Part shown: positions 20,001 through 57,700 of the stretch, piece by piece
How positions within the stretch are numbered: position 1 is the first letter of the stretch
Layout of the letters: each line of letters opens with the position of its first letter
Origin: Ascidiella aspersa
Lineage: Eukaryota
Assembly: GCA_963924565.1 (NCBI GenBank)
Contig: OZ004615.1
Span: 5,890,001-5,954,000 of the forward strand
Direction of reading: 5' to 3'
DNA: 64,000 nt
The notes under the pieces: generated by a model
The model's database searches: none
The model's input: the letters and a program-made list of their open reading frames with translations, nothing else
What the model was told of the DNA's origin: nothing
Translations under genes and position numbers: made by a program

Positions 20001-23000
20001 AATCATTAAATCAACGCACAATATTTGGGTTAGGGTGGGTCAAATATTATTATATTCATAATTTATTAATATTACTTGACCCACCCTAACCCAAAACGCT
20101 AACCCGCACCCTCAACCAAATATTGTGCGTTGTGGTAGGATTCTAGACCAGCAACACGTGTGTTTACCACATGGGGCATTTTTTTGGTCACTGTGTTTCC
20201 TAGTTCACATAAACAATACCGCCAAATATAGCAGTTTGTTAAACAGGGCGTGCTCATCAAAGTGTTAATCTAATTTTTAATATATTCGTGTATTGATATT
20301 TGCGAAGGCTTGGGCGTCATGCGACGTTATGGAGTCAATTTAATTAAGTGTGTGACGTGTTTGAAGAGTCGCGAAAATTTAGAAAAGTGCGACGACGGGA
20401 AAAAAAGCGATACAGGTTTAAAACAAGTTATAAAGGAATGAATGTAATAAAGAGGAACTGTTTCCTTAATAGGGGCTAATACACTCGGTAATGGTGAGAA
20501 CAATTTCATATTTTAAAATGAATTTCGCCTATTCTTAGCGGTTACGGAAACACTAAAAATATGTAAAAAGATAGCTAAGTATCGTTTAAAAGGGGAAATA
20601 TAGCGTACTAAACCTAATAAGTGGCAAATTGCGTTTAATTATATAGGAGCACAATTCTAATATGATCAACTGCAAATTTATCAAACATCTCACTTCAAAA
20701 ATTTGAAACTTTTAGTATTTTACTTTGGATAAAAACTTTAGAATAAGTTTCATCTATCATTTAATCGTTACCATACTTAAAGCACCAAAGTTTGTCAATG
20801 TAATACGTCTATCCTACTTCTAATTAAATACAGCCTCAAATATTGACCAAAAAACGTTATTTAGCACCTTTTTATCGTGAGGGTTAATTCTGAGGTGGAC
20901 GACTTAACGTGGTTTTGAGCCTCCAGATGCGAAAGGTTGCTGGAATCAACGCCATTAATGGACTGTATGACATCACCTGGCTTTAAGCCCTTCTGGCTGG
21001 CCTTGCCGCCCGGGGTTACCTGAGTTCAAAAAACAACTAAATGAGAGGTCACTTCGGTTCACGTGAGGTGCTTGAAGCTCGGTGGTGGTGGTAATATGTC
21101 TATGTGTTAAGGCTTTAAAGCCTATTATACGTGATCTAACGTAAACAAGGCTATCACTGCAAGTTGACTTTGCAAGTTGACTTTGCAAGTTGCATTGCAA
21201 GTTAAACCATCAAGGGGGGTCAACTATTTAGGGTTAAAGTTGCATAAAAAGGGATGGTTGTACGTTAAAGATTGAAAACTTTCCGAATTTTGTGGCAGAA
21301 ACCAATCTTTGCAGTTTTTAAGATAAAAACGGCAAACGTTGAATAAAAATTTGCAACAATGTATACTTTTTTTAAGTAGAGCACATACATGTTTTTTTTT
21401 TTTTTTGTCAAACATGCTTATGGGCCTTGTTAAACTTTTGCGCTGTGCAAATTCAAATGTGCTCTGTATGTATGTCAGTTTGCAATATCAACCAGCTTCA
21501 AAAATATTACTCAAATAAAGTTACTTTTGTTGTTTTATAAACTGGTAATAAAACAAAACAATAAACCTGTCTTTATACATACTTTTAAAAATGCTAGGAA
21601 TTGCAATTTTAGGTCGTAGTGTACACACATTAACGTGATGTTGCACACCGGTTGCAGCCAAAATGCAACGGCCTGGTGGTAACGTTTTTGCACGGGACGT
21701 ATGCCAGTAAATTTTGTTGCAGCATTCCCGTCACGCCAAATAAGGACGTGGCAAATAACTGCCAAACAAATACGGTCCCAGTTGTGGCTACAGCATTCCC
21801 AGCGCGACGGTAAATAATTGACATTACGCCGAGGTCGCCCGTTCTAGCAAATTCGATTTTAACAAGTAAAACTCGATCTCTAAGCTATTTCAAACCAGCG
21901 GGTTCCAAATGTTTAAAATAGAGCTTACAACTTTATTAAATATATAGCCTATAAATTTACAGATTTATCTGAGTTTTGTAAACCATGCAAAATCAAGATT
22001 CCGATAAACTGTTTTTTTTTCTTTCAGGCAAAAAAAACATTTTGCCAAATAGCAGCATGTGGGATAGAATACAAACCACCATTCAAATTTGAAATCAATA
22101 ATAAATTAGAAGAAAAAAAAATGGTTTTAAACCTCGGTCAACCGGTCTCCACTATTTTAATGGGTGTTTCGGTACACTGTGAATATGTGTCACAAAACGT
22201 CGCTTTAAATGTGTAAAAGCGGGTCCCTCTTAGGTGGTTATGCAAACAGGATAGTGGAAACCGCCACAGATAGCAGACAAACTCTGGTCTTGACACATTG
22301 CGGCGCTGTGGCATGTATAACGTCTGTTGCCGCTATGGCAGGATACAAGTGCGCGGTCGTCTGCCATTCACACCACTTCCGCCAATCGAAAATCGCTATC
22401 AATAGCAAGAGACTTGGCCCACCTGAAAACTGCAAAGGACGTCGTATTGAAAGCGATCTTAAACCTCAATCAAAACGTCGCCTACGGTGTTGGGAATTGC
22501 AAGTTTAAGTTTTTGCGTAAATTGCAAAATCGAAATTACATGATGACGTGTTTCGGATTTACAACTACTAAAATAAACAGGCAGATTGGCAAAAGGTAAT
22601 AACTGGACGCGGAAACTGGTGTATTTCAACGTCTGTTTTTGTGGTAATACACTAAACCGCACAATTTTAGTTCAGGGAGTAAAACGGTAAAGCCATGTAC
22701 CAACCACCTCTGTATAAATAAAAAAAAAGGAAGCCTGTATAATAAAAGCAAGGCTGAAAAACGGTACTGCAATTACAATAGAGCCCATTTGGCTAGCAGT
22801 CATCAGCCTTACGACAACATGCCCTCTATTTCACCGGCGGCTTGGCCGTTACTGACCGACATTCTATTTGTCGTTCGCTGTTGTTTTAAAAGTCGTCACG
22901 AGCGAAAATAACGAGGTTAAGATGATTTGAGAGCGCCGTCGCCGTCCGTTTGCCAAATAAGGCAATGGGTTCAGTCGAGCGCGACCGCTTCGAATGCCTA

Positions 23001-23748
23001 GTATTGTGTCGTCACAAAACGGATGCGCGTTTCAGTGCGCACGAAAACTTAGGGGCTGCTTTTATTCCAGCAATTCAGCAGGCAAGCGTTGGCTAAAGCC
23101 GGTGGCTTGTTTTTGCCAGAAACGTCAACAAACACGATACTGTTGAAAGGTCGCACGTCGCAATTAAGCGCGGCCGAAACGGGCAGGTGAATTTCGAACC
23201 CTGCACCCAAGTTTTTCCATATAAGTCGATAGTTCACAACAGTCGCGTTAAGGCGAATTTGTGGTTTACACTGAGGACAGTTTGAAGAAACGGCACAGTC
23301 CGGGCAAGGTGTTTCTAGTTTGATTTTATCAACATAATATGCTTGTCGAGTTTATCATAATATGCTTGTCGAGTTTATAAGTTATAAAAAGTGACAATGG
23401 TTGACCTGAGTTTCACGCCTGTACCTAAAACAATACGTTATTTCTGAGTTGTACAGCATTAGACCCATTACTATAGGCACACACACACTCGGTATTGCAG
23501 CAAACTTCCTAACATTTCCAAAATGATTTTAAACAAGGAGAGAAAAAACATAAACAGTTATCACACAGCATATTTAAGGATACAAACGATATTATAACTA
23601 CGAACTGCACAGGTTAAGGAAATGTCCATCTTCTGAGTCAATATTACCATCACTTTACCTTCGATATTGCCAAGCTTGCGTGGAAATCGCTGCCACCGAC
23701 CAGTCGAAATCCCCACGGACTGCCACCGCTCAATGTTACAACGCGCAT
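10925..23748 (-). CDS. PDLIM5/7/LDB3: Enigma-subfamily PDZ and LIM domain protein (1 PDZ + 3 LIM), 371 aa; complement(join(10925..11017,12719..12834,14501..14621,16579..16765,17356..17486,19267..19374,19807..19924,20868..21019,23659..23748))
   Basis: N-terminal PDZ with PWGFRLVGG and LSHLEAQN; three C-terminal LIMs ([18 protein letters not shown]; [16 protein letters not shown]; [24 protein letters not shown]). 1116 nt, all GT-AG, phases consistent. Confidence 0.95.
11153..11661. mobile_element. hAT MITE family 2, older copy
   Basis: Colinear homology to 24945-25475 along its length (e.g. shared tttgtccaacggcatttttagtctctcagt); TIRs degenerate. Confidence 0.88.
12719..12834 (-). CDS. PDLIM5/7/LDB3: PDLIM exon 8 (LIM3)
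   Basis: [39 protein letters not shown]. Confidence 0.95.
14501..14621 (-). CDS. PDLIM5/7/LDB3: PDLIM exon 7 (LIM2)
   Basis: [40 protein letters not shown]. Confidence 0.95.
16579..16765 (-). CDS. PDLIM5/7/LDB3: PDLIM exon 6 (LIM1, start of LIM2)
   Basis: [62 protein letters not shown]. Confidence 0.95.
16796..16908. repeat. ~22-bp minisatellite, about 5 copies
   Basis: Unit aaggtactttRaaacgattttt. Confidence 0.85.
17356..17486 (-). CDS. PDLIM5/7/LDB3: PDLIM exon 5 (linker and start of LIM1)
   Basis: [43 protein letters not shown]. Confidence 0.9.
17521..17820. mobile_element. hAT/Charlie-like MITE
   Basis: tagtggttcccaa...ttgggaatcactg; TSD ctttaggg/ctttatag. Confidence 0.8.
18909..18952 (-). 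ncRNA. Minimal type-I hammerhead ribozyme motif (Penelope-associated type); stem II degenerate
   Basis: UUUACA-CUGAUGA-...-GAAAC-GUC-UGUAAA; stem I is a perfect 6 bp. Confidence 0.65.
19267..19374 (-). CDS. PDLIM5/7/LDB3: PDLIM exon 4 (linker; symmetric phase 0-0)
   Basis: [36 protein letters not shown]; cccag|...|gtgaga. Confidence 0.8.
19807..19924 (-). CDS. PDLIM5/7/LDB3: PDLIM exon 3 (Pro/Ser linker)
   Basis: [39 protein letters not shown]; ttgcag|...|gtaagt. Confidence 0.85.
19980..20152. mobile_element. Palindromic MITE with ccctaaccc motifs
   Basis: 23-bp TIR gctggtctagaatcctaccacaa; copies at 40305-40506 and, truncated, at 63940-64000. Confidence 0.85.
20868..21019 (-). CDS. PDLIM5/7/LDB3: PDLIM exon 2 (PDZ end)
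   Basis: [50 protein letters not shown]; ctcag|...|gtgcta. Confidence 0.93.
21736..22962. promoter_or_regulatory. Two identical CArG boxes (CCAAATAAGG at 21736 and 22953) in PDLIM intron 1
   Basis: Match CC(A/T)6GG; CATTCC (MCAT core) at 21723 and 21794. Confidence 0.55.
23659..23748 (-). CDS. PDLIM5/7/LDB3: PDLIM coding exon 1 (PDZ start); acceptor places the exon start at 23755
   Basis: [30 protein letters not shown]|gtaaag. Confidence 0.93.
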
Positions 23749-24944
23749 ATTGTCGCTGAGATCAAAGTGCAATTTAAAAAGCTTAACAAATAAAGCAGTA
23801 CAACTATACAGCGGAATGTTGCTCTGAAAAGAGACAGAACGTCGATTTAGAAACACGGACGTGATAGCTTTATCGCAGTCTGCGATCTTTTCAGCTCTGT
23901 CTAGCTCTAACCTCAACTGGTAACTTCACCTGCAGCAACTTTCGATTTCCGTTAACCTAAATTAAACAACGTCTTAGCAAACCCTTATTTTCTGGTGGGA
24001 ACTGACAGTGTCAGCCGCAAGCAGTACTATTGGTAAGGATTTCTCAGAATTACAGTTTGTGCGGCCTAACAGCGGCGCACTCCAAACCAAAATCCGTTTG
24101 TAGCGGCCTAATCGGGCCTTATTAGTCGCGCAAATCTGCTTGCAATAGGCCTGTACTATAACTTCCGGAGGTGGGCCCAAGCCAACAGCCTTGCACAACG
24201 TAACACATCTCTTTACCCCACTGTAACCAGCGTAACTACGATGTCTCGCTTTGAGTGAGAATGGCCGACGCCTATGTCTGTGTTGTTTGCATTACAGAGC
24301 GGGAAAAAAGGCGACGGGCGCAGTGCTCGAAATACGCTGCACTGATGGCTCGCTACGACTTTTGCACGACTGCAGACCGATAAATGCGACTTGCATATAG
24401 TTTAGTCGCTATACTTTATGGAAAGTTAAGTACTAGCCGTGAGAAACCACACTGTTTCGCAATCCCTGTCTTTCACAATAGGCTGAACAGTAAACACAAA
24501 AATGAACCACACATTGTTTTGTTTGGACACAACTGCTGGTACATTGTAGGCGCGACAGGGGGGATTGTTTTAACGCGCAACACAGATTTACTGTCAAATA
24601 AGGAAGCGACGTAGACTTGGTTTCGAGATGTAGTTTCTTCATTTGTAAAATTTTTGTAACTAGTGAAAACTAGTTTATTTCAAGTTAACACCTAGGCAAC
24701 TGACATTTTTTACTAGTTACACCTTGACGGTCTTGTCACGTTTTATGTTCATACAGTTTTACATGGAAATTTATCGGGGTTAAGTCAACTACACAAAACT
24801 CTAATAATATAAAGTCAGATATGTGCCTTTCTTAAACCGCGTTGGCAACGACAACGGCATATTTATGACTAACAATAAAACACCGGGGCCAGCAAGCCTT
24901 CTTGGAAGCTTGAAGAAAGTTGAAAAATATAGCCTGTCATAACC

Positions 24945-25475
24945 CAGACTTGGACAACTAGATAATTCTAGTTTTCTAATTCAATGAATTAGAGCAAAAT
25001 GCTTCTAATTCTACTTCTAATCTAATTTGTGAATTGCTTGTTTGCTCTAATTCTAGTTCTAATCTAATTTGGATTTTACCAAAATTGCTACTTTGTCCAA
25101 CGGCATTTTTAGTCTCTCAGTTCAAACACAGAATTTCAATTAAAATTTTCTGGTTGGAACGACTTGTATGTAATTTTTACAGTCTAACAATATAAAAATG
25201 CATACAAATTAGCACACACATATTTACCATTCACGTTCTTATAAGAATAAATTGTGATTAAATTAAATTGGTTGTAAAAACTAAATGTGATTCTAGTTCA
25301 AATTCTAGTTGAAATTGATTTTTTAGGAATTCGGTAATTCTAATTCTAATCTAATTTGAAAAACCTCAAAACGATCTAATTCTAATTCTAATCTAATTTG
25401 GAAAAACTAAAATGCTCTACTTTTAATTCTAATCTAATTTTAAAAAGCTAAAATAAATCTAGTTGTCCAAGTCTG
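24945..25475. mobile_element. hAT MITE family 2 with perfect 8-bp TSD
   Basis: tcataacc|cagacttggacaactag...ctagttgtccaagtctg|tcataacc; internal ttctaatctaat subrepeats. Confidence 0.93.
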
Positions 25476-26111: not shown

Positions 26112-27579
26112 CACTTAAGCCTAAGGAATTACAAGAAACGAAGATTATTGCTAGTGAGCAACAGTTTTTTTAAAGTAGATTGTAATTTTGTTTCTGGTGT
26201 AGTAAAGAATACCAAGAAATTAAATCTATAAAACAAATCAGAAAAAAGTGCCACAAACGTATTTCTTTTTGTTTCGCGACTAACGAACGTCTTAGCAAGT
26301 AAACACTTAAATTAAAGAAAACTGATCTACGGCAGGCTCTCTTGTTAAACACTCAGCTATCGCCTGACATTCGATAGATAAAACAAACAAACAAAGACAA
26401 CTGGTTTTGCTCTTTTACAAAAATAGCTTATAATTTCCCCAATTCTTTCGACGTAGAAAGGGAAATAAGGCAATGAAAGTAATATTGACCACCGACTGCA
26501 CAAAAAAGAGAGAAAGACTCAGCAACGAACAAAACACATAATATAAAGAAATGAAAAAAACAACAACAACAACAAAGACTGAAAGCGAAAAAGGGAATTT
26601 CGCAAGATTGGAACTCGAAACGCAAGAAGGTATTTGTGCGACAAGATAGACTAAAATAGCGCCCTATATGTGAAAAATGTAATGATATAACGATGGGTTT
26701 AAGCCCCTTGCTTCAAGAGTTTATCTTACTGAAACTACTGGCAAAGACATAAAAACTATAGGAGCTGTATACTACTGTTGAGGTCTTATGGAACTTGAGA
26801 TAAACGGCAAGATTCTGGGTTTTACGTTTACCAAATAGTAAAATGCAGTAGATTTATGCTTACGCCGCACCGTTACGTCTTGTAAAGCTGCGAACAATGC
26901 AGAAAGGGGCGAACAAGGCAGAAAGGGGCAAACAACAGTATGCTGAACGTCAACTTAAAATAGCAAAGCAACAAACCGCAATAATACTGCTAAACGAACA
27001 TTCGCCGCTGCACATTTACAAGTGTTCGACCATAATTATCTCCAACTTTCGTTAAATATCGCGAGGAACTGACAGGTTTCAAAGTTCAGGAGGTCCTGTA
27101 ACGCAGAATGACTTAAACTAATACTTCTATTGCTTATAAAAGCGACTGCAATCATTTGCGCAGAAATTGGCCGGACGTAATGGCAAGCGACAGAAAAAGT
27201 GCACGGCGGTTGCGGCCGCTGGGTGGCAGAAACAAACGGCGGGCACAGCTATCACCATGACAACGCACTGCGTGTGTCAAGCTTTGGGGCGCGCGCGATA
27301 AGCAAAAATTTAAACAGCGAAATAAACCAAGCAAAGGCGACTGGAAAAAATAAATAAAAAGGTTGGGCACGCGTTTTTTTCGGCGAAAAAATAGGCTGCT
27401 GTCCAGCGGGCTTCTTTTTCGCGCCCGGGGGGTGAAGCTCACCCCTCCTTCCGAGGGGGCTTTCCCCGGATTTGGAAAGCCGGCGGCGGCGCGCACAGTA
27501 TCTTGGCTGCGGCGGACTAAATACAAAAAGCGCACGGGCCGGCACGTGACGTCACTGACTGACGGCTGCGATGACATCA

Positions 27580-27763
27580 TCAGGTGCCTCGAAAGTGGTC
27601 GCGCGGGCGCGTTAGGCCCTGGTCCCAGTCCAGGCCCGGCTGCCGGTAGTTGCAGCGCGCCGGGTGCGCCCGGGCCCCGGGGAAGCCCCGCTTGAATTCG
27701 CGACACGCAGAGCTGTGGTGCGAGGGGAATCCCCGGCGTCGCGAGGACTTGTGCGGCAGGCGC
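27580..27763 (-). CDS. ADAMTS2/3/14: ADAMTS terminal exon T (cationic tail)
   Basis: ttctcacag|[60 protein letters not shown]; in phase with exon S. Confidence 0.75.
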
Positions 27764-30700
27764 CTGTGAGAAAAGGAAAAGTCTTATTGCTGGCTAATTA
27801 GGGTGCATTAAGACTAGGTAATGTGTGGAAATTTTAACTGAAAATCTTGTTCATTTGTCGAGTTGTGGGACTTTTGTTTTTTAACCAAATTTGAATTTTT
27901 TACGTTTATACATATTTAAACGAATATTTATAAACTATCCCCCTAAAACTGGCGGTCGAGTAATGGCCTTTTTGGAAGAGTAGACTCGTAGGGATCATCC
28001 TATATGAGTCACTTTAAACGTTTAAAAATGTTAAGTCCGAAAAGGCTGAATATTAATATTTTTTTTTGTTGATAATTTCTAATGGCTGGCTAAGTTATAG
28101 GTTGCTTTGAGTAATGTGTGAACATTTCTGATTGATATCTTTTTACTTCCGGAGATATTACACAATAAAATCCAGCTGCATGCTTATCTTTGGTATAAAA
28201 AGAGGTATCGGGTTTTGTGGTGCATTGGTGGATTACAAGATTAAACTATCGGTTGGTCAACGGTTTAATCATAATTTTACCTTTTAACACATTGAGTTAG
28301 AATTGGTCAACAATCGAACAGTGTACACTTTAAATGTGTTGAATTAGAATTGGTCTACATTCTAACAGTTTACGCTTTAAATGTGTAGAATTCAAATTGG
28401 TGAGCATTATAGCACTTAACACTTTTGATACGTTGAGTTAGAATAGAACCGCGTAAAACGGTTAAGAAACACTGTGCCAGATCACAGATATACCCACGTG
28501 TCTACATAATGGTTGTGTGTGTTTCAATATTGGGTCAATTCTCATTGCAAATCGATGCTAATTTCAAGTCAATATTTCGCCGAAGGCAAGTAACTGTACT
28601 TACAAGTAGCACGGCACCACGCAGCGTGACGATGATGACGTCACAGGATGTCGACACGCGGATGACGTCACCCAGGCCGACCGGCTCTCGTTCCAGCAGC
28701 CGTATATGGCGCGTCTGCGGAGAGACAAAGTCGGTTAATTGACTAATTAACGCAATAAAACTTTTGCTCGAGCACGCCCGCCCACCACCATTAGCCGTCA
28801 CGTTAGCGGAAATGACGCGAGAGAAATGGCATATTTGCCTAACTTCCGGTATTAAACGAAGGCGGTGTTCCCTCGCCGTGTATGCTAACGGCGAGCTATC
28901 CATGTATACGCGTTGTCGTTGCAATTAGGTTGGCTAAATTGGATAATGTGTAGGCCTTCGTGCAAGGTTAGGGAGCAAACTTTTTAACTTTTTAACTGTT
29001 GAATTCAAAAAGTTTCCAGCCTCCGACCACCTCTGACATATTCATCCCGAAAATTGACTAAAAGTATTTTTGAAACAAAAAATGTGGCCGGCTTTTAAAG
29101 ACTAAATAGGCTTAGAGAATCTTCGGTCATAGCGAAATGACCTCTTCAGGCAATAAGTTCAATTTTACATATAGGCCTCTGTCATAAAGGTAATGTCCTA
29201 TGTCGTGTTTACGTCATGTCTTACATGTAAAAAGTTATTCAAGAAGATCTTCAATTTCACTTGTATTTTATTGAAATCAATCTGCTTAAATTTATTAGCA
29301 ACGATATAATCATTTTTTATTTAAACCAGGCAAAATTCGTCTTAAAATCGCAGGATTGAAAATTCCTTATGCTCAATTTTCGTTTCATTGTTTTACTTCT
29401 AAATCAAACCTTTTCTTTAAACAAATGATCATCTTTCAAATATACACTAATATTTGAATTAGGCCTTCACTGACCCCTTAAAACTAGTTTACGTACCCTC
29501 AAAGGGTCCATGGACCCCAAGAACCCCTGTTTTAAAGGCAATACTAAATGTAAAGCCGAATGCTTGCTCAAGGTCAAGGATTATTGCTTTCTTGTTTCCA
29601 ACAAAACTCGATGGTCGATGACGAAAATGAATGAACTTCAAATTAAATCGAGTCATTCATATATCGCAGAGCTGGCAAAATCTTACCTTTTCCCGACGCC
29701 GCATCCCATCTCTGAGCCGCACATGCCCCATTCGCGAAACACGCTCCGAACCGATCTCCTACGCCGTCTAGCGGCAGCGGAAATCTCCTCCGAATCAGGA
29801 TTCTCGGCGTCGAGCAACGACTGGGGAGTGCTCCGGGTCCTGTTTACTTGCGGCGAGAGAGTCTGGATGACTTCGCGGACCCCGGAGTTTGCGTCTGGAT
29901 CGTGATCTTCTTCTTCGTCTTCTTCATCTTCATAGTCGTCCAGAACTGCTTCCCGGTCAACATCCTCGTCTCCGACATCTCGGATCGCTTCCTCCTCACC
30001 TTGAAGAGCGGAGGGATTTGGGACGACCTCCGGATGCAGGAAGACCTCGCCGTGAACGGTGGTGAGGCGCGTCAAGTTAAGGTTGTTGAGCGCGGACTGC
30101 GAAAAGCAGATTTGTTAATGAGAATCGCAGATAAATAGGTTGAACAAAAGCAAGTCATTCGAATTCAGCTTTGATTTTCAAGGTGGAGAAGGTAAAAGAC
30201 AATTTTTTTATGAATTCATTTTATTTCTAGCAATATTTCGCGTATTTTCCAAAATTGTATTTAATTGAAGCGCTCAATTTTAATCTAAATCATTCGCCAA
30301 ATTCACTAAAGTACAACTTAAATAATTTATGCAAAAGGCTTAAGTCATGCGATTTAAAAAGCAATGACTAGCACTTTTTAAGTGTTTGACACCAATCAAA
30401 ACTGTTTTAAACAAACTTTTTACTTCTTTCTTTTATTTCTTTTTCTACAGCGCCATATGGAAAAAGGTTTTATTAAAATGGGCAAAACCTAACAAAAAAT
30501 TGAAAAAAAACGGCATTTAACATAATTTAAAAACATAGTTTTCGGTTTCTATATGGCCTTGTACCTATTTGGTAATTCAGAAAAGCTTTAATCACTTTTC
30601 GAGAATTAAAACTGTGCTTAAAGAATAGATTTTGCACATTTATTGATAACTTGGTCAAACTCAAATTCCAAAGCGTTTTGACGCCCAGCCAGAAATCCAG

Positions 30701-33700
30701 GGCGTCCAAAAACGCTCTGTACACCCCAGTGTTGTAATAACTTATGTCATTGACTTGACTTTAGGGCACTTAAAACACTGTTTTCCTATGACTTGACTTG
30801 ACTTGCCTTAAGTTTTTTGACCAAAATAACTTGACTTGACTTAAATCTTTTGGACAAATGACTCGACATGGTTTGTCAAATAACTTGGGATAAATTAAGT
30901 GTTTTTCTTTAAAATTTATCTCGAGTTTTGCACATTAAACACTTTTATTACCGTATATTGCATTTGTGGTATTTTTTAGTTAAATTGTTTCTTATAATCG
31001 GACGAGTTTACCAATTTTAATAGTTTAACAGTTTACTTTTATGTCAATAACATGACCTGAAATTGACTTGCTCTCATAATGACTTGACTAGGACTTGACT
31101 TGTTATTTTTTGCAAAAGACTTGCCTTGGACGAAGTTATTTTTTAAATGACTCGACTGTAATTTGAGGAATTTTAAATGACTTGTTTACAACACTGGACA
31201 TCCACATTCGGCACCAAAGCTCCAAAGTCTTTCACAACTAGAAGCGCAAATGCTCTTACTTGATTGTTTCCGTACAGCGAATCGTTGTTGAAATACCGCG
31301 AGACGGCGTCGCTGAGCAGATGACGTACCGCTGGCACCTCGCCAGGTGCTTCCCCGTACTGACGTCGGTGCTTGCGGCACGAGCGGCAACACAAACTGCG
31401 GTAACCCTTGATCTCACAGTAGCTCGAGATTGCCTTCAGCTTGCAGAAGATCGACTGGTCGGTGGTGCATTCGCTTTCTGCGCGAATGAAGAGGGTTTGG
31501 ACGCTTTTTAAAACTTTACAAATATATATATCATGTTTTAAACTTGGGTAAACTATGCACGGATCTGTAATGTAGCTTGATAATAAATTGCAAAGCCAAA
31601 AAGGTCGATAGATCGACAACGTCTTATTCAAGAAGATGTCGATCTACCCGACCTTTTTGGCTTTGCAATTTATTATCATGTTTTAAACTATTGGGTGCAT
31701 AATGGCTCACAAATGGTGGCCAAAAAGACCAAAACCGAGACGCAATGCCTTATATGCCTCGACAAAATATTACATCCAATTCCAAAGTAGGTAAAACATA
31801 AAATCCTGATTGAAAAACAAACATCACGTGTCCATACTGAAGTAGGTGGCATTTTATAAACGCTTTAAATAAAGTTGGAAGATTTATTTCAAACTTTTAC
31901 GAAATGTTTTACCTACTTCTTTATGGGAGATTTTCGTTTGAGACTTTTGAGGCATTGTTTCTCGTTTTGGACTGTCATTTTTTTTAGTGACCAACAAGTT
32001 TAAAGCGCCTGGAAAAAGCTCTCGTGTGGATAATGTGCAACACAAGGTAAAAGGTTTTTGTCTTGGTTTGTATAAATTATTATTTCGGCCAAGAGATCAA
32101 GGTATTGTCTTTAGTGAGAAATGTTTATACTGATGACGCTAAAATAAATTTTCCACGATACTGATAGCAATTCCAGCAAATTTGTCATTAAGGGATCATT
32201 GGACAAAACACAGTAAGTTACAAAAATACATCCAAGAACTTATTATAATATGTATAAGTAAACTAGCAAAGCGTATAGTCAAAAACAAAAGCAAGGCCAC
32301 TGCTTAAGCTTAAGCAATATTCGCAAACAAGCAAGCACCAAGAATATGCAGTAACGATAAAGCACTCTTACAAGTTAACCTACTTGTTTAATTTTTTTTT
32401 TCAAAACTATAATAAAACGTTTTTCTCGCAAAACTACCTTTCTTTGACTTGTCGCGTGACCGGGATGAGCTGCCGGATGTTGGGCGAAAGCGCCTGCCTA
32501 GGGGTACAAGCGCAGTCAGTATTCGGCGAAGCGTTATGGAACGAAGGCAAAAGCAAAGCCACCGGTGCAAATATAAACACACATGCATATATATATGGCA
32601 AAAGGCAAAGGTCTAACCGACTAACTCGATAGCTAGGGATGTCCGATACTTGGCATTTTATTCCGATACAGATACCCGATATTTTAAACAAAAATTATCT
32701 AATTCGATCCTATACCAAATGAAGTCGTTGATATGCTTAAACAAGCAAAATCAAATCGTTTAAATATCATGTTTTCCAGGTTAATATGTCAAAATTTTCT
32801 TCAGTGTTTTTAGGTTAGTTACTTATAGTCGTTAACCTAATAATATTTGATCAATTTGTTGGCATCAGGTATCGGCTCCGATCTGATATTATTGGACATC
32901 CCTAACTATAAGAATAAATCTTTAGGTAGACTTGAAACTAAACCAAAGTCAAATGTTTTACGAGAGTAATAGAAATTACTTTTTTGGGAAAAAAGACTTG
33001 GGACTAGTTTGGTTTCATTTCTGTTTTCTAGTCATTTGCTTTAAAATCAATTTTGTTGTGTGTGATAAATTTAAGTAAAATGTCAGTTAAACAAAATGAT
33101 ATAAACTATTAAAATATTCACCACAAGCGTTTTAAATATTCGCCACAAGCTTCAAAAATACAGCATTGGTTTAGCCTTTGTCAGTGCAAAAAAGCTTATC
33201 AAACAAATATATGAGCTATCTATACGATACAATAAATTGAAATCAATTAATATTTAATTGAAAATCTATTGTCTGTTCAGCTTACGTTCGCAATCGGCTA
33301 GTTGACAGGTTTTCACGTCGAGGGGGCGTGTCTCGAGGCAGTTGGGCGAGGCGTAGGTGGTTCCCCGGCCTCTGCAGATGACCTGACGTCGTTGAATGCC
33401 TTCGCCACAGGTTGCCGAGCACTGGGGACAGAAAAGAGTTGATTTTTTTTAATAAAGGGTTAATTTTGACATTTGTAAAGTTAGGCGCGGTGGTTTGCTA
33501 AGTAGGTTAAGTTAAACCCGGGAAGGAAATATTTCATTCGCAATGTAAAATATACTCAAAGTATTTTACTGATAACACTGATTTTATAAAATAAAAACAA
33601 ACTAGCAAATCGCACTTAGCTGACAACGAGAAATACAAAATGGAATGCACCGATATATATTAAACTTAGGGCAACGCTGTATAATAGTGAACGCGCAAAC

Positions 33701-36700
33701 TTTGTTGATAATACGAATTATTTCTTAAAAAATATCGCAATTATCAGCTGTTCAGTGCCCAACTTAACCAAACGCATTAGGCAGAACTCGTTTAGTCTTC
33801 ACCGTTTAAAGAATACACGCACTGTTCAATCCCATAAGACGCATTGGTGATGGTGGGTACATAATAGTTCTCAACAAAGTTCGCAATTTTTAGCTGTTCA
33901 GTGCGCAACTGAACAAACACCATCAGCAGAAATCGATTCTTTGCGAGAAAAATAGTACAAAAACGCTGCGAAACTTACTCTAGACCAGTTGCCCTTCCTC
34001 CATACTGCCGGACACGGAGGCGGCATACAGCGGCGTTGGGAGACCGGCATCGCATACCCAGAGCAGCGGGCATTGTCCAACTGCTCTCCGCTGGCCGTCT
34101 GTCTGCAGGTGACTGACCTGTGGTGGACTCCTGGAAAGCCGCAGGTCCGCGAGCAGGATCCCCACTCTGACACGACCCAGCTGCGTGAAAATAGGGACAC
34201 TTGTCATCAGGGTTTAGGATTAGGAGTCTAAATGGGGACTCGAGACTAGGTGGAGTCGGTTAATTTTACTGAAGTAGGACTCCGGACTCGAGTAACGCTC
34301 CTTAAGATTACCCGAACGAGTAAAGAGCAGGATCCCCACTCCGATTTGACCCAGCTGCGCGAAAACTCGCGACACTGGTCAGCAGGGCTGCGGAGTCGGG
34401 ACTTGACGATATCGTTTTATTCTGCCAACCCGGGTAGATAACCGACTTGTACATGCGCAGTACTAAACTTCGAAACGGATAAGGCCGCAAACTTTCAGTT
34501 GTAATTAGGGATGACGATAATATCGGATTGAAGCCGATACCCGATACCAAGTGGTAGTATTGATACTCGTCCGATATACGCAGGAATTTCAGTCATGGTT
34601 TGTAATCTAACGCAACGATTCAAACTTGAAAGGTTAATTTATCAAAAACTATACTAGGTTAACAACTGAAGGCAACTACATTTTTTACCATTGTTGTGGA
34701 ACGCAACCGCGCCATTCCCGAGCACGCGGCTCGAGGCATTCTTGTGTTATTTTAATTGCTATGCGTTGTTTGTGTGTACGCGCTTGATTTGTGCCTACTG
34801 CAGGAATGTAATTGGTGTGTTTGTAATTACTTCGTGAGCCTATAAAAGGCTGTTCACTTACTACTACGTTACCATTCCATTTTACTGATTCCGACTGAAT
34901 ACAACCTAAGTTACAACAAACTGTGCTTATTTGGACTCTGTAAAGAAGCAAGGCGCAAACGTGATTGAAAACACAACAACCATTAAAGCAAATGTTGGCA
35001 TAATAACCTGGAAAAGGGCCTTAAATGTTTCGATTTCACCTATTTTGCTTATTGGAGAATAGCAATGACGTCATTTGGTATCGGATCGGATCGCGATACT
35101 TTTTGTCTAAAATATCGGGTATCGGTGTCGAAATGAAATATCAAGTATCGAACATCCCTAAAAGGTGGAATAGCATATAATAAAATACTTTCCAACCACG
35201 TGTTCTGTGTGTACGGGTAATTAGACCCCCGGCATGGGCGGATTGCTGGACATCCACCATATTTTGGTTACGTAAATGGGTGAAGGTAAAAAAGATAGGA
35301 ACCAAAATAGTCGCTAAGTGTTTGTGGTTTAAACCACGAGCAAAATAGACAGTTTAAAAATTCTTGCCGTGACACAAAGTTTAGGGTGATTTTATTAAGA
35401 GTAGCCATAGCTCCGAAAAAACTCATTTCGGAAGAACATTCGAGTCACCAACCTGATAGAGGCCGGGCATTCCCCGGCGTTGCAGGTCTTGCCCCAGTTT
35501 TTTGGGGGCGAACCCAGGCACTTCCTTTTTGTCACCCACTTGCCCATCCGCTTGCTACGACAGCCGAAACGAGGGGTCCTGGATAGATAACAAACGGAAA
35601 TGTTAGAAGGCGTAAGTAGTATAGTAGGAGGTAGAACACATTAGCTCTTTGTTTTAATGTAGTGCTAAGTGTTTTATTAAGTGCTAACGATGTAAGAGAG
35701 GCCGATGAATATCTGTAAGAAGTAAATCGAGATTTTGCTACGCGTGTTATTTGACGTTTAACGTTTGTTATTGTCTAATTTTTTTCATAGTGATTTTATA
35801 ACTGTAACCAATACCATAACACCTCAATAAATCTAGCCCTGTCAATTACTGCAGACTGCGACTCAACAAAATCAAACGCCAACCCAAATTTAGGTCGCAA
35901 ACCATAGGTTGAGAAACACAGGCTTTGGCGAAGCCATTCTTGGTCATCTCAAATAACGGCCATGTTTACATGGGACAAAAAGACAATACGCGACAGGCGC
36001 TTTAAACCGGTCGCGCAAATCGAGCGAACCGGGTTCGAACCTCTGTCCTTCCCCGCATGTCACGGAACAGGGCGTCCAGCGTCGCACCGCAAAGTTGTAA
36101 ACGTCGCGCGGCCTCGGAACGTCGCGCTGGTGCAGCACGTAGTTGTAGCGCACGTCGACGCGCACCTGGCGAGAGCGGACCAAGATCTGAAAAGGGAAAG
36201 GGGAGAATGTTTTTAAGTATAGTTGCTGAGGGAACTTTACAAGCAAAGTGCCGACTTATAGGCCAGTGAGTTCCACTTAGTGTTAAAAAGATACAAAAGT
36301 GCCGAGGTGCTATACCGTATAACACCTCAGCACCTTTGTATCTTTTTAACACTTAGTGCTACTCACTGACCTATACAGTGCCGACTTGGTTTTGAAAACC
36401 CTTATACGTATAGCTGATTAGTCAGTGGTCCTGAATTTAAACCCAACCGCAGTTAGTTTTTGTATCATTTCTGTTGTGCATGTAAATTAAATCAACAACG
36501 AATAATATTGGTAAGCCCTTTAAACAATTGCCCAACGTATTATACTAAAAATAAAAGATCGTTTAGAGCTGCTGTATGACCTCATAATATTTGGTCCGCA
36601 ATGTGCATATTGCTTGCCTTAATGTGTTGTTTATTAACTGGAGAACATGACTTTTAAACAATCTTAGATATAACCACCAGACGTGCAGCTTTGCTTTCTC

Positions 36701-51700: not shown

Positions 51701-54700
51701 TCGCGGTTTACCGGCTTTCTAATCTGTTTGCTGTATGTCAGCCGAGGGTGTGCCCCAGATTACAATCCATTAGGGTTTGCTTGAAGTCTGTAAATTGCAA
51801 AAGTGCGGCGACTGTGAACGCAGCGTAATTTTTTTAGCTATACTAAGTACTTTATATATATATATATATATATGCCTCAAGCAAGTTTGCAAAAACCGTT
51901 GACACTGAACCACAACCTGAAAAAATGACGCAGTCGGGTGCTTAATTTGTGTTTTATATGACCTATGCTGATAACTTTTTTAGGCGACGGTAAAAATGGT
52001 TATCAGCACGCGACGAATAAAGGATAAATTACTATTTCAAACTAATTTCCTGTTCATAATGCCACAGACAGTGTAGAGACGAGGGATTTCCTGGTGGCTT
52101 TGTGGTTAATCGTGAAGGATTTGTCTTAGAGGTTATAAAAGCGCTTAGCTTAAACTTATGAGATTAGTTCACCCTCAGGATTGTGCGGGTCAAGGGTATA
52201 TTACTACATTCCTCGCGTTGCATCGTAAGTCATAGCTAAAATACTTTACTTGGTTTAGCGTCGCAACGACACCCTATAGCACCGTACGATTTCCGAAACT
52301 ACCACTCTGCTTTGTGTAGCGGCTCCGATAGAACAACATCGGACATCTAATTCTCGTAAAACAGTCTTTGTACAACGCACAAAAGAGTCCGAAGAAACGT
52401 CTGCCTGGACTATGGTGTACCGCATAATCTAGTTCGCGGTTTTGCCAGAAGCATGTCAATACAGTAGCAGATTAACTGACGTCCAATTGCCAATGTATGC
52501 ACTTACCCGATGTTGCTGATGATCTCCTGTTGGCTGCACCTCGACCAGTGGTAGCGGTGGAAGGCGGCCTGGACTATGGGCGCCATGATTGATCCCATCA
52601 CAGTCTCGTCAATGCATCGGTTCCCCTCACCGTCGTGCTCCATTCCTAAGCTGGCCGCGCAAATGAAAAGAAAGTGAGTTCTATATATAGTCGCTGGAAA
52701 CGTAGCCGCTGTTGGGTACACACAAAATGACTCGTATTCAAGTAGAGTGGTACACAAAATAACTCGCGACTCATGATTGTAAAATTGCTCAGCCCTGGCT
52801 ATAAAATTGCTCAGCTTAAAGTCATTTGGTGACATGAGTAAAAACGTGTGTCACAACTGACTCGAGGCAAAATTTCAAAAATATTCCACGTTTTACTGTG
52901 TCAACTTGAGACACTTTAATCACTTCGAAGTTTAAAGGCATTCACTTCAAAGTCTGGTTTGTAAATAGTAATAGGATCGTGATTGCCCAATGCACGGGAA
53001 TGTTTAATATCAAATAAATACGTAAACATTTTAAAACAAAGGTCCTACATAGTAAAGAAATACAATTTTAGTGCAGGCCATTGGCTATACAAAATGCCTC
53101 ACAAAATGACCCGTATTTACGTCGAGTGGTTCACCAAATAACCCGCGACCTATGCGTACTAGCAGTTCTTCCATCCCAGGTTATAAAATTGCTTAGCCCT
53201 AAAAAAAAAAATGATTTTTACAAATGACTGGAGTCAAAATTATTCCACGTCTTTATGTCTCAAAGACTCAACTTAAATTAAGTCTAAGTCTACAGGAATT
53301 CTATTTGAAATTTGGTTTGTAAATATCAATGGGCTTGTGATTGCCAAATAATTACGTAAACAGTTTAAAACAAACGTCCTACGTGTATAGTTCCCATATA
53401 GCAATACAATTTTAGTGCGGTAGGCCTAATCGCTTTTACTTCGTAACGGCATGATAAATATAAGTAATTAGAATGACTCATTTGAATAAGAGAGATTAAA
53501 GTGTGATTCGAACAAAATAAATTACAAGGCATTTAATGGAAACTGAAATTTGAGCTTTGGATTTGTCTTCATTAGGCGTTTTTTTTTTCTTAAGAGCTAC
53601 CTCATGTCAAACTGCTGGAAATATGTAGAGCCGATTCGGTTTTTATACTTCGAAAAGTGGCTTAGGGTTGTCATCGCATAAGGTTCGTGCAACTCAAACC
53701 TACTGGATTTTCAAGCCATGACCTCGCGGCAGCAGTTCAGCTTATTGGAAAAAACTCGCCTACGTCGCCGAAGTAAAAAAAACGGGGTCGCTTTCGATAA
53801 CAAATGAGGTTAACGCCACTGTCCATCATCGCCCGGTGTGCGCGCGCAAGCCTGAATTCACATCAAACGCCCCTCTCAAACTAGGGCAAATACTTGGGGG
53901 TAGATTAGCTTTTCTGCATTTTCCCACACCTTGGGCAGCCAGTCTATTTTTACGAGCTTTGGTCGCATTGCATAGAACAGGACCTATACAGGTTTGAAAG
54001 TAACGGCGGCTGCCTGAAGGTTATCATGTAAACAGGCAAATTACTGCATCACACGACTAAAATGCTTTGCACACAGATTCGACAAAATTGAAATGCAGTA
54101 GTATGTTGTGCAATTATCGTGGCCTGTTCGTGCAATTTAGTTAAAACTAAAGTATTCCCAACAGAGCGTTATCCAGGTGGTGGCATTAACGATCCAACGC
54201 AACTAAGGAATACCTTTTCACGCAATCGTTTGGGCGAAACGGCCTTTTAGCAAACCCGTCGAGTGGGTCAAACGCGAGCGCTTCGAATTACTCCCAGCGC
54301 TATAAGGAAAGGATTAAAAACGTCCGCGAAAGAACTGGAAAGATGCAGAATCTGGCATAAGAAAAGGCAGGAGAATCGAACCCGGGCGGCAATTTATCAG
54401 CCCCCGCTGTCAAAGCGTTTCAAACAGAAGCGTGTTGAGTTCTGAGATGAAGAATTAGTGCTAAGGGCAACGCCCGGACCCTCTAAATACCGAAGCCGCG
54501 TCGAGATAAGATCTCCACATACACCGGCCAAATCCACGATCGAGTTCTCAGCGCTCGGGGTCAGAGTTCGAGCGGCCGGACATTTTGTTTTCACAAGTCG
54601 GATTTGCTCGGCAACTCGATACACTTTCGGCAATTCGGCTTTGCGCTCATCGGACGGGCGGCAATGCGTATACACTTGTTTTCTTAATTTTTCGGCGGGT

Positions 54701-57700
54701 TTAGTGTACTTAAATTCTTGAAGGTTGGTAGAATTAGTGGGAACACTTTGCGCGAATCTGTAACGTAGCTTTAAAATGAATTGCAAAGACAAAAAGGTCG
54801 GGTAGATCGACATCATCTTGATTAAGACGTTTCTAAAGATGATACAAGTTCGTATCGAAACGCCTTAATCAGGATGATGTCGATTTGATCGACCTTTTTG
54901 GCTTTGAAATTTACTATCTGGCAAGATTCAGTTGAGGAAAAAAGAAAAATAACAAAGTTGCAATTGTAAAATCGAATTCGTTACAGATTTTTAGTGTCAA
55001 ACTAAGTGTTGGAACAACCTAAGTGTTGGAGAACGGGAGGACATCTTCTATATAATCAAGTTTCGGGTAAATAGTTAAGTTCGGGTAAATCACTATTGTA
55101 TACTTACACGTGTCCCAGCTCGTGCGCCACAACGAAGGAGGTCGAGAATCCATCCTCGAAGTTCAGCGAGCAGCTGCGCAGTCGATCGCACATCCCCGAC
55201 ACGTGGGCGAAGCCTGCGCCAATCACAAGGCAAGGTTAAGTCACGTGACTACGCAAAACAGGCAACAGTTAATAGGGGTTGCTTGAATGTAGATTTCAGT
55301 CTCTGGCTTCAAAAAATGTGATAAAACATCTTTCAAATATAGACTGGCAATATATTTCTACTGTTATGATTAGTCACTATTAAAAAGGAAAAAAAGCAAC
55401 GTTGTAACGACCTAAGTGAATGAGTGGTAAAGTACATTTAGACTTAACTTGACCAATGTCTTCAGAGGAAAATGACCTGACTTGAAATAAGTTAGTAAAG
55501 CAATTGAATGGATTTCGTATCACGTCTGGTATAGTCAAACTATTGCTCAGAAAGGGACGAGTTTACAAATTTTAAATGTTAAACATTTATTCTGCTTTTA
55601 ATCGCTTCGTATGACACCTAAAATATTTTACAACGAATTGACTGGCATTCAAGTCATTACTGATTGTGTTATTACAACACTGGAAAAACATGTTGCGCTA
55701 TATTTCAATAAAAAGCCAAATAAGACTAAATCGGCGCGCGTTAAACCTAATCAAAAAGTGTATGAAAATGGAATGCTGTGATAAAGTCATGCCTGTAAAG
55801 CACAACGGTTTGCAGCCTCTCCAAAACACTCGTGCGCATTCCGGATGTTTTTCAGCGTTCCGCATCCTGAGCGATTCGGCATTTCCCAGCCCGGGGCCGC
55901 CACAATTACTGCCAAAAAAACTAAAAAAACACCAAAAATCAGGGCGGGCCCATAATCGCGTCCATATATCTGCGAAATCGGGCGTCGACACGCGATAGAG
56001 ATTTTTTGTGCAGATGGCGATTTCGTCGTTGACTTATCGAGATTTACGGCGTTTATGGCCGTGATCCTATCGCGGCAAAACGCGGACAAGTTATGACCCA
56101 ACAAGGCATTGGAATTGGGCGCGGCGTCTTGATTGCCGCGGACATTCGACGAGCAAAAATGTTCTACCAGCAGAAGCGGGCCAATTAAATTGCGCAAGGT
56201 CGCGATGGCATCGTAGCAGCGGCGATAAGGATCGGACGCGTTACAGCGATAATCGCCACAGCTATAGGGCGTCGAGGAATGTCAATAGGTCGCCGTGAAA
56301 TGCGACTGGAAACATCCGAACGGAAGACACGGGTCTCCCAAAGAACGATTCCCATCTCCACGAATTTCGCGTCATTGTAACACACTCACCATTTACGAGT
56401 GATGCGGTTTCGAGCTTTGGATTGCGACTACTTTTGTGCGTTTACCACTTGCAGAAGTTTTTATTTCTGAACGCCTTTTTATGCTTTGTGTATTGGTAGA
56501 AAAACACAACTAAACTCGCTTTACCCGTTGTACATATTACATCGCTCTCTCGCTGTGAAAGAATGTAATGATAAATTTTATGTTTTTTTATTTGTGATAA
56601 AACGCTGGATGTTTATAGAAGACAGTTAGATTTTACCCTAAGGGTTCGGATAATCGTTATACTTTTTTTTCTAAATTTGGAATCGTTAACCACTTTTTGT
56701 GTAAGACTTGATTCATTACCTTTAAAAGGGCAATCGTGGTTTTCCAGCAATCGTACAGAGAAAGGTTCAATAATTTTAAAAACAAATCTAAAACTCTCCA
56801 GTTTTATCATTAACAGTAAAATGCTTGCGCGTTATTAATACAGGTGTCCTTTCTTTAAATAGTACTTTGGTTCTAAAATGGGTTATTTGTGCTCGCCACT
56901 CGATGATCAGATTGTTCAGATAATATGAATCAGCAAAAAAACTACAGGGGTCTGGGTTATCAAATCGGCAGCTGGGTCAAAGCGAAAGTCAATCTGTGAA
57001 GAAGCCAGGATGTGTACACTTCAGCTATTATTAGGCCTGCATATCAGGTGGAAAACATCTTGAGATATCGTCAAATAAACATTTAATATTTGATTTAACC
57101 CGTCTGTGTGTTGAGTTACTCCCCCCAAAGCGGAATATGACTACTTAATCTTATTTTTGACAAGCTTATGTTATGTTCGCCTGATTTCCTTGCCGGCGAC
57201 AAAAAAGCCGCGGTAATTTTCCCGGCTGATACATATACGATAAACTCGCCGCCATGTTTTTTGAATCAGTTTATCAATGGAAAAATGTCGCTCCAACCCA
57301 AACCATCTGTTTTACTTGAAATTATCTTTCGATTCTCAAAATCACATCACAAAAGACACAAAAAAGAGTCCTCAATTTTTCATACCGCACGAAAGCCATG
57401 GCCATACGTCCAATGTAATGTAATAAACTTTTTTTCATGTTGTGCTTTTCCAACCAATCTTTTCTGTCTTTTTTCAGGCCTAGGCCGGCTTACGTGGCCA
57501 CCTTAAAAGCAAGCCCCATCCCTGTTTCTCCCTCTTTGTGTCATTTCAGTCTCCAGAGTTGTGTGAAAACTGGAGAAAAACCAGGCGGCTTTGAAGTGGC
57601 CAGATGTGAACATAACATGTCCTGTTGTGACGAGTGGCGCAAGTTTTTTCCCCGGAAAAATGCGATTCCGCAGAAATCGTAAAGCCGTCATGTCGAACAG

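Follow-up and report, generated by a model that had tools for sequence, protein, structure and literature searches.

The DNA analysed here (the window) is a stretch of 64,000 nucleotides (nt) of Ascidiella aspersa (GCA_963924565.1, contig OZ004615.1, positions 5,890,001 to 5,954,000), which contains most of one ADAMTS gene on the minus strand. This gene continues for three exons, R, S and T, beyond the exon encoding its PLAC domain. The cassette that they encode, i.e., an acidic spacer, a polybasic site and a cysteine-rich basic module, is a real, spliced and conserved C-terminal addition to the ascidian ADAMTS2/3/14 orthologue. The features of the gene that matter for this account are the following.

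55107..55217, minus strand: catalytic exon containing HELGH, the zinc-binding motif (domain and motif comparison)
52509..52649, minus strand: catalytic exon used for clade assignment (best matches ADAMTS3 and ADAMTS14)
36041..36186, minus strand: exon M, end of the spacer domain and first half of the second thrombospondin type 1 repeat (TSR2), with a phase-2 intron after CG-x-G-x as in exon R (boundaries from sequence and homology, outside the range of the second read mapping)
35453..35578, minus strand: exon N, completing TSR2, with phase 2 on either side as for exon S; the module was likely copied from here
33979..34183, minus strand: exon O, TSR3 and the start of TSR4 (domain match; joint 33421/33979)
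33286..33421, minus strand: exon P, remainder of TSR4 (domain match and contig joints)
32438..32497, minus strand: alternative 60-nt exon in the gap between TSR4 and PLAC, in frame and rich in Arg, Lys and Ser (X3 joints)
31260..31477, minus strand: exon Q, PLAC and the start of the acidic spacer (PF08686, E 0.0073, below the cut-off; 25/31 identical to Phallusia; X3 contigs)
29687..30096, minus strand: exon R, acidic spacer, basic site and first two Cys of the module (contig and conservation)
29899..29940, minus strand: acidic tract with a Tyr amid acidic residues (acid-flanked Tyr in 4/4 tunicate-type sequences)
29746..29769, minus strand: polybasic RRRRRSVR, in which cleavage is predicted between 29755 and 29754 (RRRR/SV)
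28604..28714, minus strand: exon S, Cys 3–6 of the putatively TSR2-derived repeat (contig; single genome match)
27580..27763, minus strand: exon T, basic tail (+10) that includes the conserved Cys 7 and 8 (27705–27643), ending Gly-Thr-stop
26405..27579, minus strand: 3′ untranslated region (UTR), extending to at least 26405 (X3 contig)

The gene is assigned to the ADAMTS2/3/14 clade by the names of its best matches and by collinear exons. A search with the catalytic exon returned 938 proteins, and among the 120 listed, every match with a subfamily name is either ADAMTS3 or ADAMTS14. The sole recognisably non-vertebrate named match among these 120 is ADAMTS3 of Phallusia mammillata (P0016, CAB3219998.1, 1367 amino acids (aa)), which the exon at 52509..52649 matches at 83%. 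When this protein was aligned by tblastn, collinear exons were found along the window, and the prodomain exons, with their basic sites, lie in two upstream stretches (L003 and L005); a candidate signal-peptide exon at L006:1736-1668 is one of five heuristic candidates. TSR1, the Cys-rich and spacer domains, three further TSRs and PLAC are all present. The gene is collinear with the procollagen N-proteinases ADAMTS2/3/14, represented by Ciona ADAMTSa ('Ciona 3') and the Phallusia protein, through the prodomain, metalloprotease, disintegrin-like domain, TSR1, Cys-rich domain, spacer domain, TSR2-4 and PLAC. In Ciona, a single ADAMTS2/3/14 orthologue is described (PMC549037, PMC1867822). Compared with its vertebrate counterparts, the window gene adds an 8-Cys module, probably derived from TSR2, behind the acidic spacer and a putative convertase site.

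Splicing of the exons beyond PLAC

Exons Q, R, S and T have AG/GT ends and share one open frame, in which R, S and T total 705 nt, i.e., 234 codons and a stop. A single 740-nt contig from the data set X3 covers S (112 nt), R (411 nt) and Q (217 nt) with both introns skipped, and the X3 joints S-T (27762/28603), P-Q (31477/33286) and O-P have canonical CT..AC ends, the S-T and P-Q joints resting on 30-letter contig ends against a bridging threshold of 31 letters. The Q-R joint in X3 is shifted by one base with the 1163-nt skip unchanged, which we infer to reflect a synonymous allele at the final base of Q. Two alternative donors in Q (31337 and 31328) are excluded by the length of this skip.

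None of the indexed data sets matching this DNA is listed as RNA, and X3 comes from the same study as the probable source of the assembly. Since its joints are exon-exact and the contigs of X1 and X2 continue through the intron sequence adjoining R and S, X3 is likely complementary DNA. A retrocopy as the source of the spliced contigs is unlikely because R and S each match the 308.6-Mb genome once, with no stand-alone copy. A further X3 contig runs from T into a 3′ UTR of about 1.2 kb and carries 22 substitutions in 1175 nt of UTR vs. none in 183 nt of T (chance about 0.03; the substitutions are clustered), and none are listed in R or S. No AATAAA or ATTAAA was found in 26250–27580, and nine such hexamers lie in the Q-R intron. 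An early stop after Q is disfavoured by the steady contig depth, a crude measure (O-P 48.7, Q-R-S 39.8, T-UTR 63.9). In the independent raw RNA run X4, of which about 6 in 100 were read, the few reads are one-sided and fall on R and the 3′ UTR; the bins covering S and most of T are empty, and no Q-R-S-T joint was seen.

A preliminary description of this DNA, made from its letters alone, had proposed three in-phase exons of 234 codons after PLAC, and had considered that transcripts might end before exon R or that R to T might belong to a separate transcript. The in-phase arrangement is borne out by the open frame and by the contig spanning Q-R-S, which, together with the S-T joint, also carries the transcript past exon R. 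In Phallusia ADAMTS3, the cassette and the protease lie in one chain, indicating a common protein rather than a separate transcript. Of the junctions from Q through T proposed there as a check, Q-R-S is joined in the X3 contig and S-T on a 30-letter end, and X4 supplies no such joint.

Origin and conservation of the terminal module

The module had been described as TSP1-like with six Cys. The likeness stands, at a level below Pfam detection and for one repeat only, and the count is corrected to eight, two of the Cys lying in exon T. Neither the intron-split exons R, S and T nor the contiguous Phallusia tail matches the Pfam models TSP1_ADAMTS or TSP_1, and a pooled TSR profile scores weakly (5.2 and 2.7 bits, inside the shuffle tail). 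Separate profiles were built for TSR2, TSR3 and TSR4 from 74 fetched vertebrate proteins. The TSR2 profile scores 14.5 and 14.0 bits on the module, with 0/1000 shuffles as high, whereas the TSR3 and TSR4 profiles are not significant (47–107 of 1000 shuffles as high). Pairwise scores are likewise highest against TSR2 of both species (69–80; 0/500 shuffles); Phallusia TSR4 (49; 0/500 shuffles) and window TSR3 (48; 2/500) score lower, also above shuffles. The module has the six-Cys spacing of TSRs and the pattern W..C..CG.G..R, and it shares with TSR2 the spacing YGC/FGC-x6-W-x5-C. In addition, exons R and M each end at an identical codon, in a phase-2 intron that follows CG-x-G-x, and S and N both run from phase 2 to phase 2.

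Because the module matches the TSR2 profile only and shares the intron position and phase of TSR2, it is likely an intragenic duplicate. The simplest account is that the TSR2 exons M and N were likely duplicated to the 3′ end, followed by the gain of a basic two-Cys tail exon; this would be a clear example, intron evidence included, of a gene gaining a domain by duplicating its own exons. An assignment of the Cys7–Cys8 stretch of exon T as a further half-TSR is unsupported, as nine profile tests gave 10/500, 25/500 and otherwise at least 101/500 shuffles as high. ESM Atlas features of the module return TSP1 for the best 10/10 matches (score 0.89), which is a lead only. The AlphaFold models are poor, with a mean predicted local distance difference test (pLDDT) of 33.5 and 50.8, and contain only a two-strand hairpin at 60–70; the alignment of the second was seeded with TSR2 rows and partly misaligned, and Foldseek with this second model gave no match at E ≤ 0.001. 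A separate module duplication at the end of this family is seen in two goby ADAMTS14-like proteins (P0123 and P0124), whose tails hold a second, duplicated PLAC.

All eight Cys are conserved in the three complete modules (window, P0016 and P0122), which are 105–120 aa long with a net charge of +14 to +16 and a pI of 10.2–10.8. Between the window and P0016, identity is 25/31 in PLAC, 57/148 in the acidic spacer, 36/59 in the terminal TSR and 21/61 in the tail, and for comparison 26/52 in TSR2, 23/57 in TSR3 and 33/52 in TSR4. The terminal TSR is thus as conserved as the structural TSRs (61% vs. 40–63%), with the spacer at 39%.

When 1.84 billion representatives were searched by phmmer with the Phallusia segment from PLAC to the end, there were 26 matches, of which 23 are to PLAC only, one (P0128, a repetitive snail protein matching the spacer) is spurious, and two are to the cassette. 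The latter are P0121, an unnamed fragment corresponding to exon R, and P0122, a Ciona intestinalis protein of 177 aa (H2XPK5) that is annotated on its own as uncharacterised. P0016 itself is absent from these matches, so full-length orthologues are hidden within 50% clusters, and the search is no guide to the taxonomic range. The 2005 Ciona model ends at PLAC, residue 997 (PMC549037, supplement 2, rows 15–34 of 41), and the modules of Ciona XP_018671182.1 are listed only to residue 1008 in a source that, in the text available, does not state the protein length (PMC10499240). We infer from these sequences that H2XPK5 is the lost 3′ end of the Ciona ADAMTS gene, in which case the annotation, with a model stopping at PLAC and the cassette filed as a separate UniProt protein, would need to be corrected. 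A Branchiostoma belcheri model (P0126) stops 28 residues past PLAC and looks faulty, with a repetitive insert and TSR4 mostly missing. A metagenome scan with the PLAC exon gave 597 pattern matches and no relatives, ESM Atlas with exon R gave no usable match, word-based searches with exons R and O against longer proteins gave nothing, which is weak evidence, and the one match of the Ciona protein to PDB sequences is due to chance.

The basic site, the acidic spacer and vertebrate tails

The furin consensus is R-x-K/R-R, with further subsite preferences around the scissile bond. One such cluster is present in the spacer of 4/4 sequences, 8–10 residues ahead of the module's Trp: RRRR/SV in the window, RRKR/DV in Phallusia and P0121, and RQRR/SM in Ciona. 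The chance of any R-x-K/R-R in a shuffled spacer is 0.005–0.105 per sequence. All four sites have Arg at P4 and P1, a basic P2, Ser or Asp at P1′, Val or Met at P2′ and a steady distance to the domain, and the prodomain of the same gene holds an identical RRRRRSV (L005). Because these residues fit and the prodomain repeats the motif, a furin-like convertase likely cuts at RRRR/SV; the conservation of the site and the Cys, the location of R to T in the same protein in Phallusia and the transcript running past R point the same way.

Here the preliminary description was accurate about the position of RRRRRSVR (29746–29769), the acidic spacer with its Tyr (tract 29940–29899) and the cationic tail (exon T, +10), and the basic site and the Cys, on whose conservation it had made its proposal depend, are conserved in 4/4 sequences and 3/3 complete modules, respectively. 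The released module, which it put at about 115 aa, would be 120 aa if the cut falls after the fifth Arg.

The spacer has a net charge of −26 and −16, reaches 19 acids per 30 residues in the window tail, and contains four N-glycosylation sequons and Ser/Thr-rich stretches. The Tyr in the acidic tract is a candidate sulfotyrosine, judged by its acidic neighbours. Two hydrophobic motifs, HGE-x-F-x-HP (30054–30031) and EVIQTL (29874–29857), are conserved in the otherwise divergent spacer, flank the acidic tract and lie on the protease side of the predicted cut.

These glycosylation features bear on an alternative in which no cut occurs in vivo, i.e., the basic cluster is glycan-shielded or part of a heparin-binding surface, and the cassette is a fifth TSR on a long linker. 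Certain ADAMTS furin sites indeed stay uncut (PMC8275829), and the sequons and Ser/Thr-rich stretches could provide the shield. However, the features conserved in 4/4 sequences are those of a convertase site (P4 and P1 Arg, basic P2, P1′/P2′ and the fixed distance), which makes this alternative improbable.

The preliminary description also held that human ADAMTS2/3/14 end in PLAC followed by an unstructured tail. Of the 120 fetched proteins, 102 are at least 800 aa long and 101 have the PLAC CCxxC; 100 besides P0016 were compared, mostly ADAMTS14 and including many isoforms and close relatives, hence not independent. These vertebrate tails have a median length of 151 aa, 77 lack Cys and none has more than five, so none contains the module. 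They are rich in Ser, Thr and Pro and hold no more than 8 acids in any 30 residues, vs. 19 in the window gene. The rows of human ADAMTS2 and ADAMTS3 in the available part of the 2005 alignment likewise show no TSR beyond PLAC (PMC549037). The claim therefore holds as far as the module is concerned, but it missed a basic site near many ADAMTS14 ends.

R-x-K/R-R occurs in 35/100 of the vertebrate tails (shuffle mean 4.3), mostly 18 residues from the end; among tails of at least 110 aa, it falls within the final 30 residues in 33/71 (shuffle mean 0.7), or 47/71 with a relaxed pattern. This C-terminal site is present in rays, teleosts, frogs and a turtle, and not in lungfish or several birds inspected. 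In the ADAMTS14-type proteins, acidic residues follow the basic cluster. A literature search of titles found no paper on a C-terminal basic site of ADAMTS14, and the conserved site offers a prediction that is cheap to test. A separate observation concerns the extreme end: the three complete ascidian modules end in Gly-Thr (window 27583–27588; P0016; P0122) and Thr, with a frequency of 0.12, is the last residue of 32/71 vertebrate tails, often as V-x-T; this is possibly a common C-terminal motif.

Function of the cassette

The reading preferred here, to which we give a probability of roughly 0.45, is that the cassette is a convertase-removable matrix anchor or decoy derived from TSR2. A furin-like convertase would cut RRRR/SV during or after secretion, and the 12–14 kDa product would attach to polyanions by way of the basic tail and a face resembling that of TSR2. 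Until the cut is made, the basic module or TSR2 may be clasped by the acidic and possibly sulfated spacer. Sulfated matrix or cell surfaces would retain uncut enzyme more tightly, and cut enzyme, retaining PLAC and an acidic tail of about 145 aa, would be freer. Partial or cell-specific cutting would then determine how much enzyme is tethered relative to how much is mobile, with the freed piece acting as a competitor for these binding sites.

This anchor or decoy is favoured because of what is reported for ADAMTS2, for heparan sulfate binding in the family and for SOD3. ADAMTS2 probably stays near the cell via its second TSR, its full activity depends on TSR2 and TSR4, and trimming of the C-terminal domain raises activity 3–4 fold (PMC12362006); this trimming resembles the predicted cut but is autocatalytic, not performed by furin. 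Heparan sulfate is bound by ADAMTS1, 2, 4 and 5, and mobilisation of ADAMTS4 by C-terminal trimming has been suggested (PMC8275829). SOD3, also a secreted enzyme with a C-terminal basic segment, loses this heparin-binding anchor to furin, and the furin site decides its matrix retention (PMC12774472). The analogy is functional: there is no homology, and the SOD3 anchor is a short peptide, whereas the cassette has a predicted folded disulfide module of 105–120 aa behind a 140-aa acidic spacer. Cleavage that frees TSR-bearing ancillary pieces, altering matrix binding or yielding active fragments, is described for ADAMTS1, 4, 5, 12 and 18. In contrast to the cut predicted here, those cuts are made in the ancillary region by matrix metalloproteinases, thrombin, autolysis or unidentified proteases, and the text available mentions furin sites in the prodomain only. 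Available portions of reviews place furin action on ADAMTS only at the prodomain, and a second conserved convertase site by which a folded module is detached would, if true, be a new regulation of procollagen N-proteinases.

The ADAMTS2 data can also be read differently, with the cassette as a C-terminal propeptide, i.e., a folding aid or latency clamp that, before the cut, prevents the enzyme from acting on procollagen while still in the secretory pathway, the freed piece being waste. In ADAMTS2, the C-terminal domain is a negative regulator removed by proteolysis (PMC12362006), the propeptides of ADAMTS9 and ADAMTS17 are secretion chaperones (PMC8275829), and the conserved HGE-x-F-x-HP and EVIQTL could dock on the enzyme. 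However, vertebrate orthologues are secreted without the module (0/100 tails with more than five Cys), and a basic surface that is conserved speaks for an external polyanion as ligand; we regard such a propeptide as improbable.

Several points weigh against the anchor or decoy. First, cleavage and binding are both predictions from sequence, and an optimal site may be cleaved to completion in the Golgi, so that only non-covalent retention would then allow the module to tether the enzyme. Second, the TSR part of the module has a charge of +4/+5 vs. +10/+11 in TSR2, i.e., about half is lost, and it is without the first Trp and without the Ser/Thr before the second Cys that the O-fucosylation consensus needs; given these losses, a new ligand is possible. 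Third, 61% conservation exceeds the needs of a plain charge anchor. Fourth, there are only three complete modules, which to judge by the names available belong to a single ascidian group, and one of them depends on assigning H2XPK5 to the Ciona ADAMTS gene.

The divergence from TSR2 bears on a further alternative, put forward in the preliminary description, in which the cut frees an independent secreted effector (a receptor or matrix ligand, or an antimicrobial) and the acidic spacer is a neutralising pro-piece. An acidic segment followed by a basic site and a cationic Cys-rich product is the layout of prohormone and antimicrobial precursors of the defensin or cathelicidin type. The acidic spacer, optimal site and conserved Cys-rich basic product are in keeping with this, as is a module that is better kept than the spacer (61% vs. 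39%) and has diverged from the TSR2 signature. Freed ADAMTS TSR fragments can act, e.g., the thrombin-released 45-kDa piece of ADAMTS18 (PMC3712723), and heparin-binding segments are often bactericidal in vitro (PMC2717103). However, the genome holds no stand-alone copy (R and S, one match each), Pfam gives no peptide or antimicrobial family match, and ESM Atlas and PDB sequence searches give none. Unlike a disposable pro-piece, the spacer would remain on the large protease after the cut, and there is a single site, with no second one to excise it. Cationicity alone also failed in physiological salt, where the SOD3 peptide lost killing (PMC2717103), a point relevant to a marine animal. Since TSR2 itself is strongly basic (+10/+11), positive charge is no pointer to defence. 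With a module that is likely a TSR2 duplicate and conserved like structural TSRs, we consider the proposal doubtful. A broader version, in which one gene yields the protease and a 12–14 kDa 8-Cys effector, made from a TSR2 copy and directed at a receptor, matrix or antimicrobial target of its own, and the ADAMTS14 site of sharks, teleosts, amphibians and reptiles, about 18 residues from the end, is a remnant of an ancestral convertase cut overlooked in vertebrates, is likewise an unlikely account of these sequences.

No description of the cassette was found in full-text literature searches, although Huxley-Jones 2005, which treats six Ciona ADAMTS, could describe the Ciona layout. As the Phallusia and Ciona sequences are public, the novelty lies in recognising the cassette.

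The alternative exon at 32438–32497, overlooked in the preliminary description, is joined in X3 at 32496/33285 and 31477/32438, with a depth of 12.9 vs. 34.3 for contigs skipping it, and two X4 reads fall on it; in Phallusia, the linker at this place is comparably long but not basic. This basic exon could tune polyanion binding, which would fit a tuning of retention. At the catalytic site, the zinc-binding motif is HELGH in the window gene vs. HETGH in 107/107 fetched motif-bearing relatives and in Ciona. The next downstream gene, on the same strand at about 20860–23720, encodes an N-terminal PDZ domain (PF00595, E 2.4e-14) and is presumably of the PDZ-LIM family. High-copy interspersed repeats occupy introns and intergenic DNA at 24944–25475, 30440–31200, 31544–31650 and 34700–35100, where contig depth reaches about 190,000.

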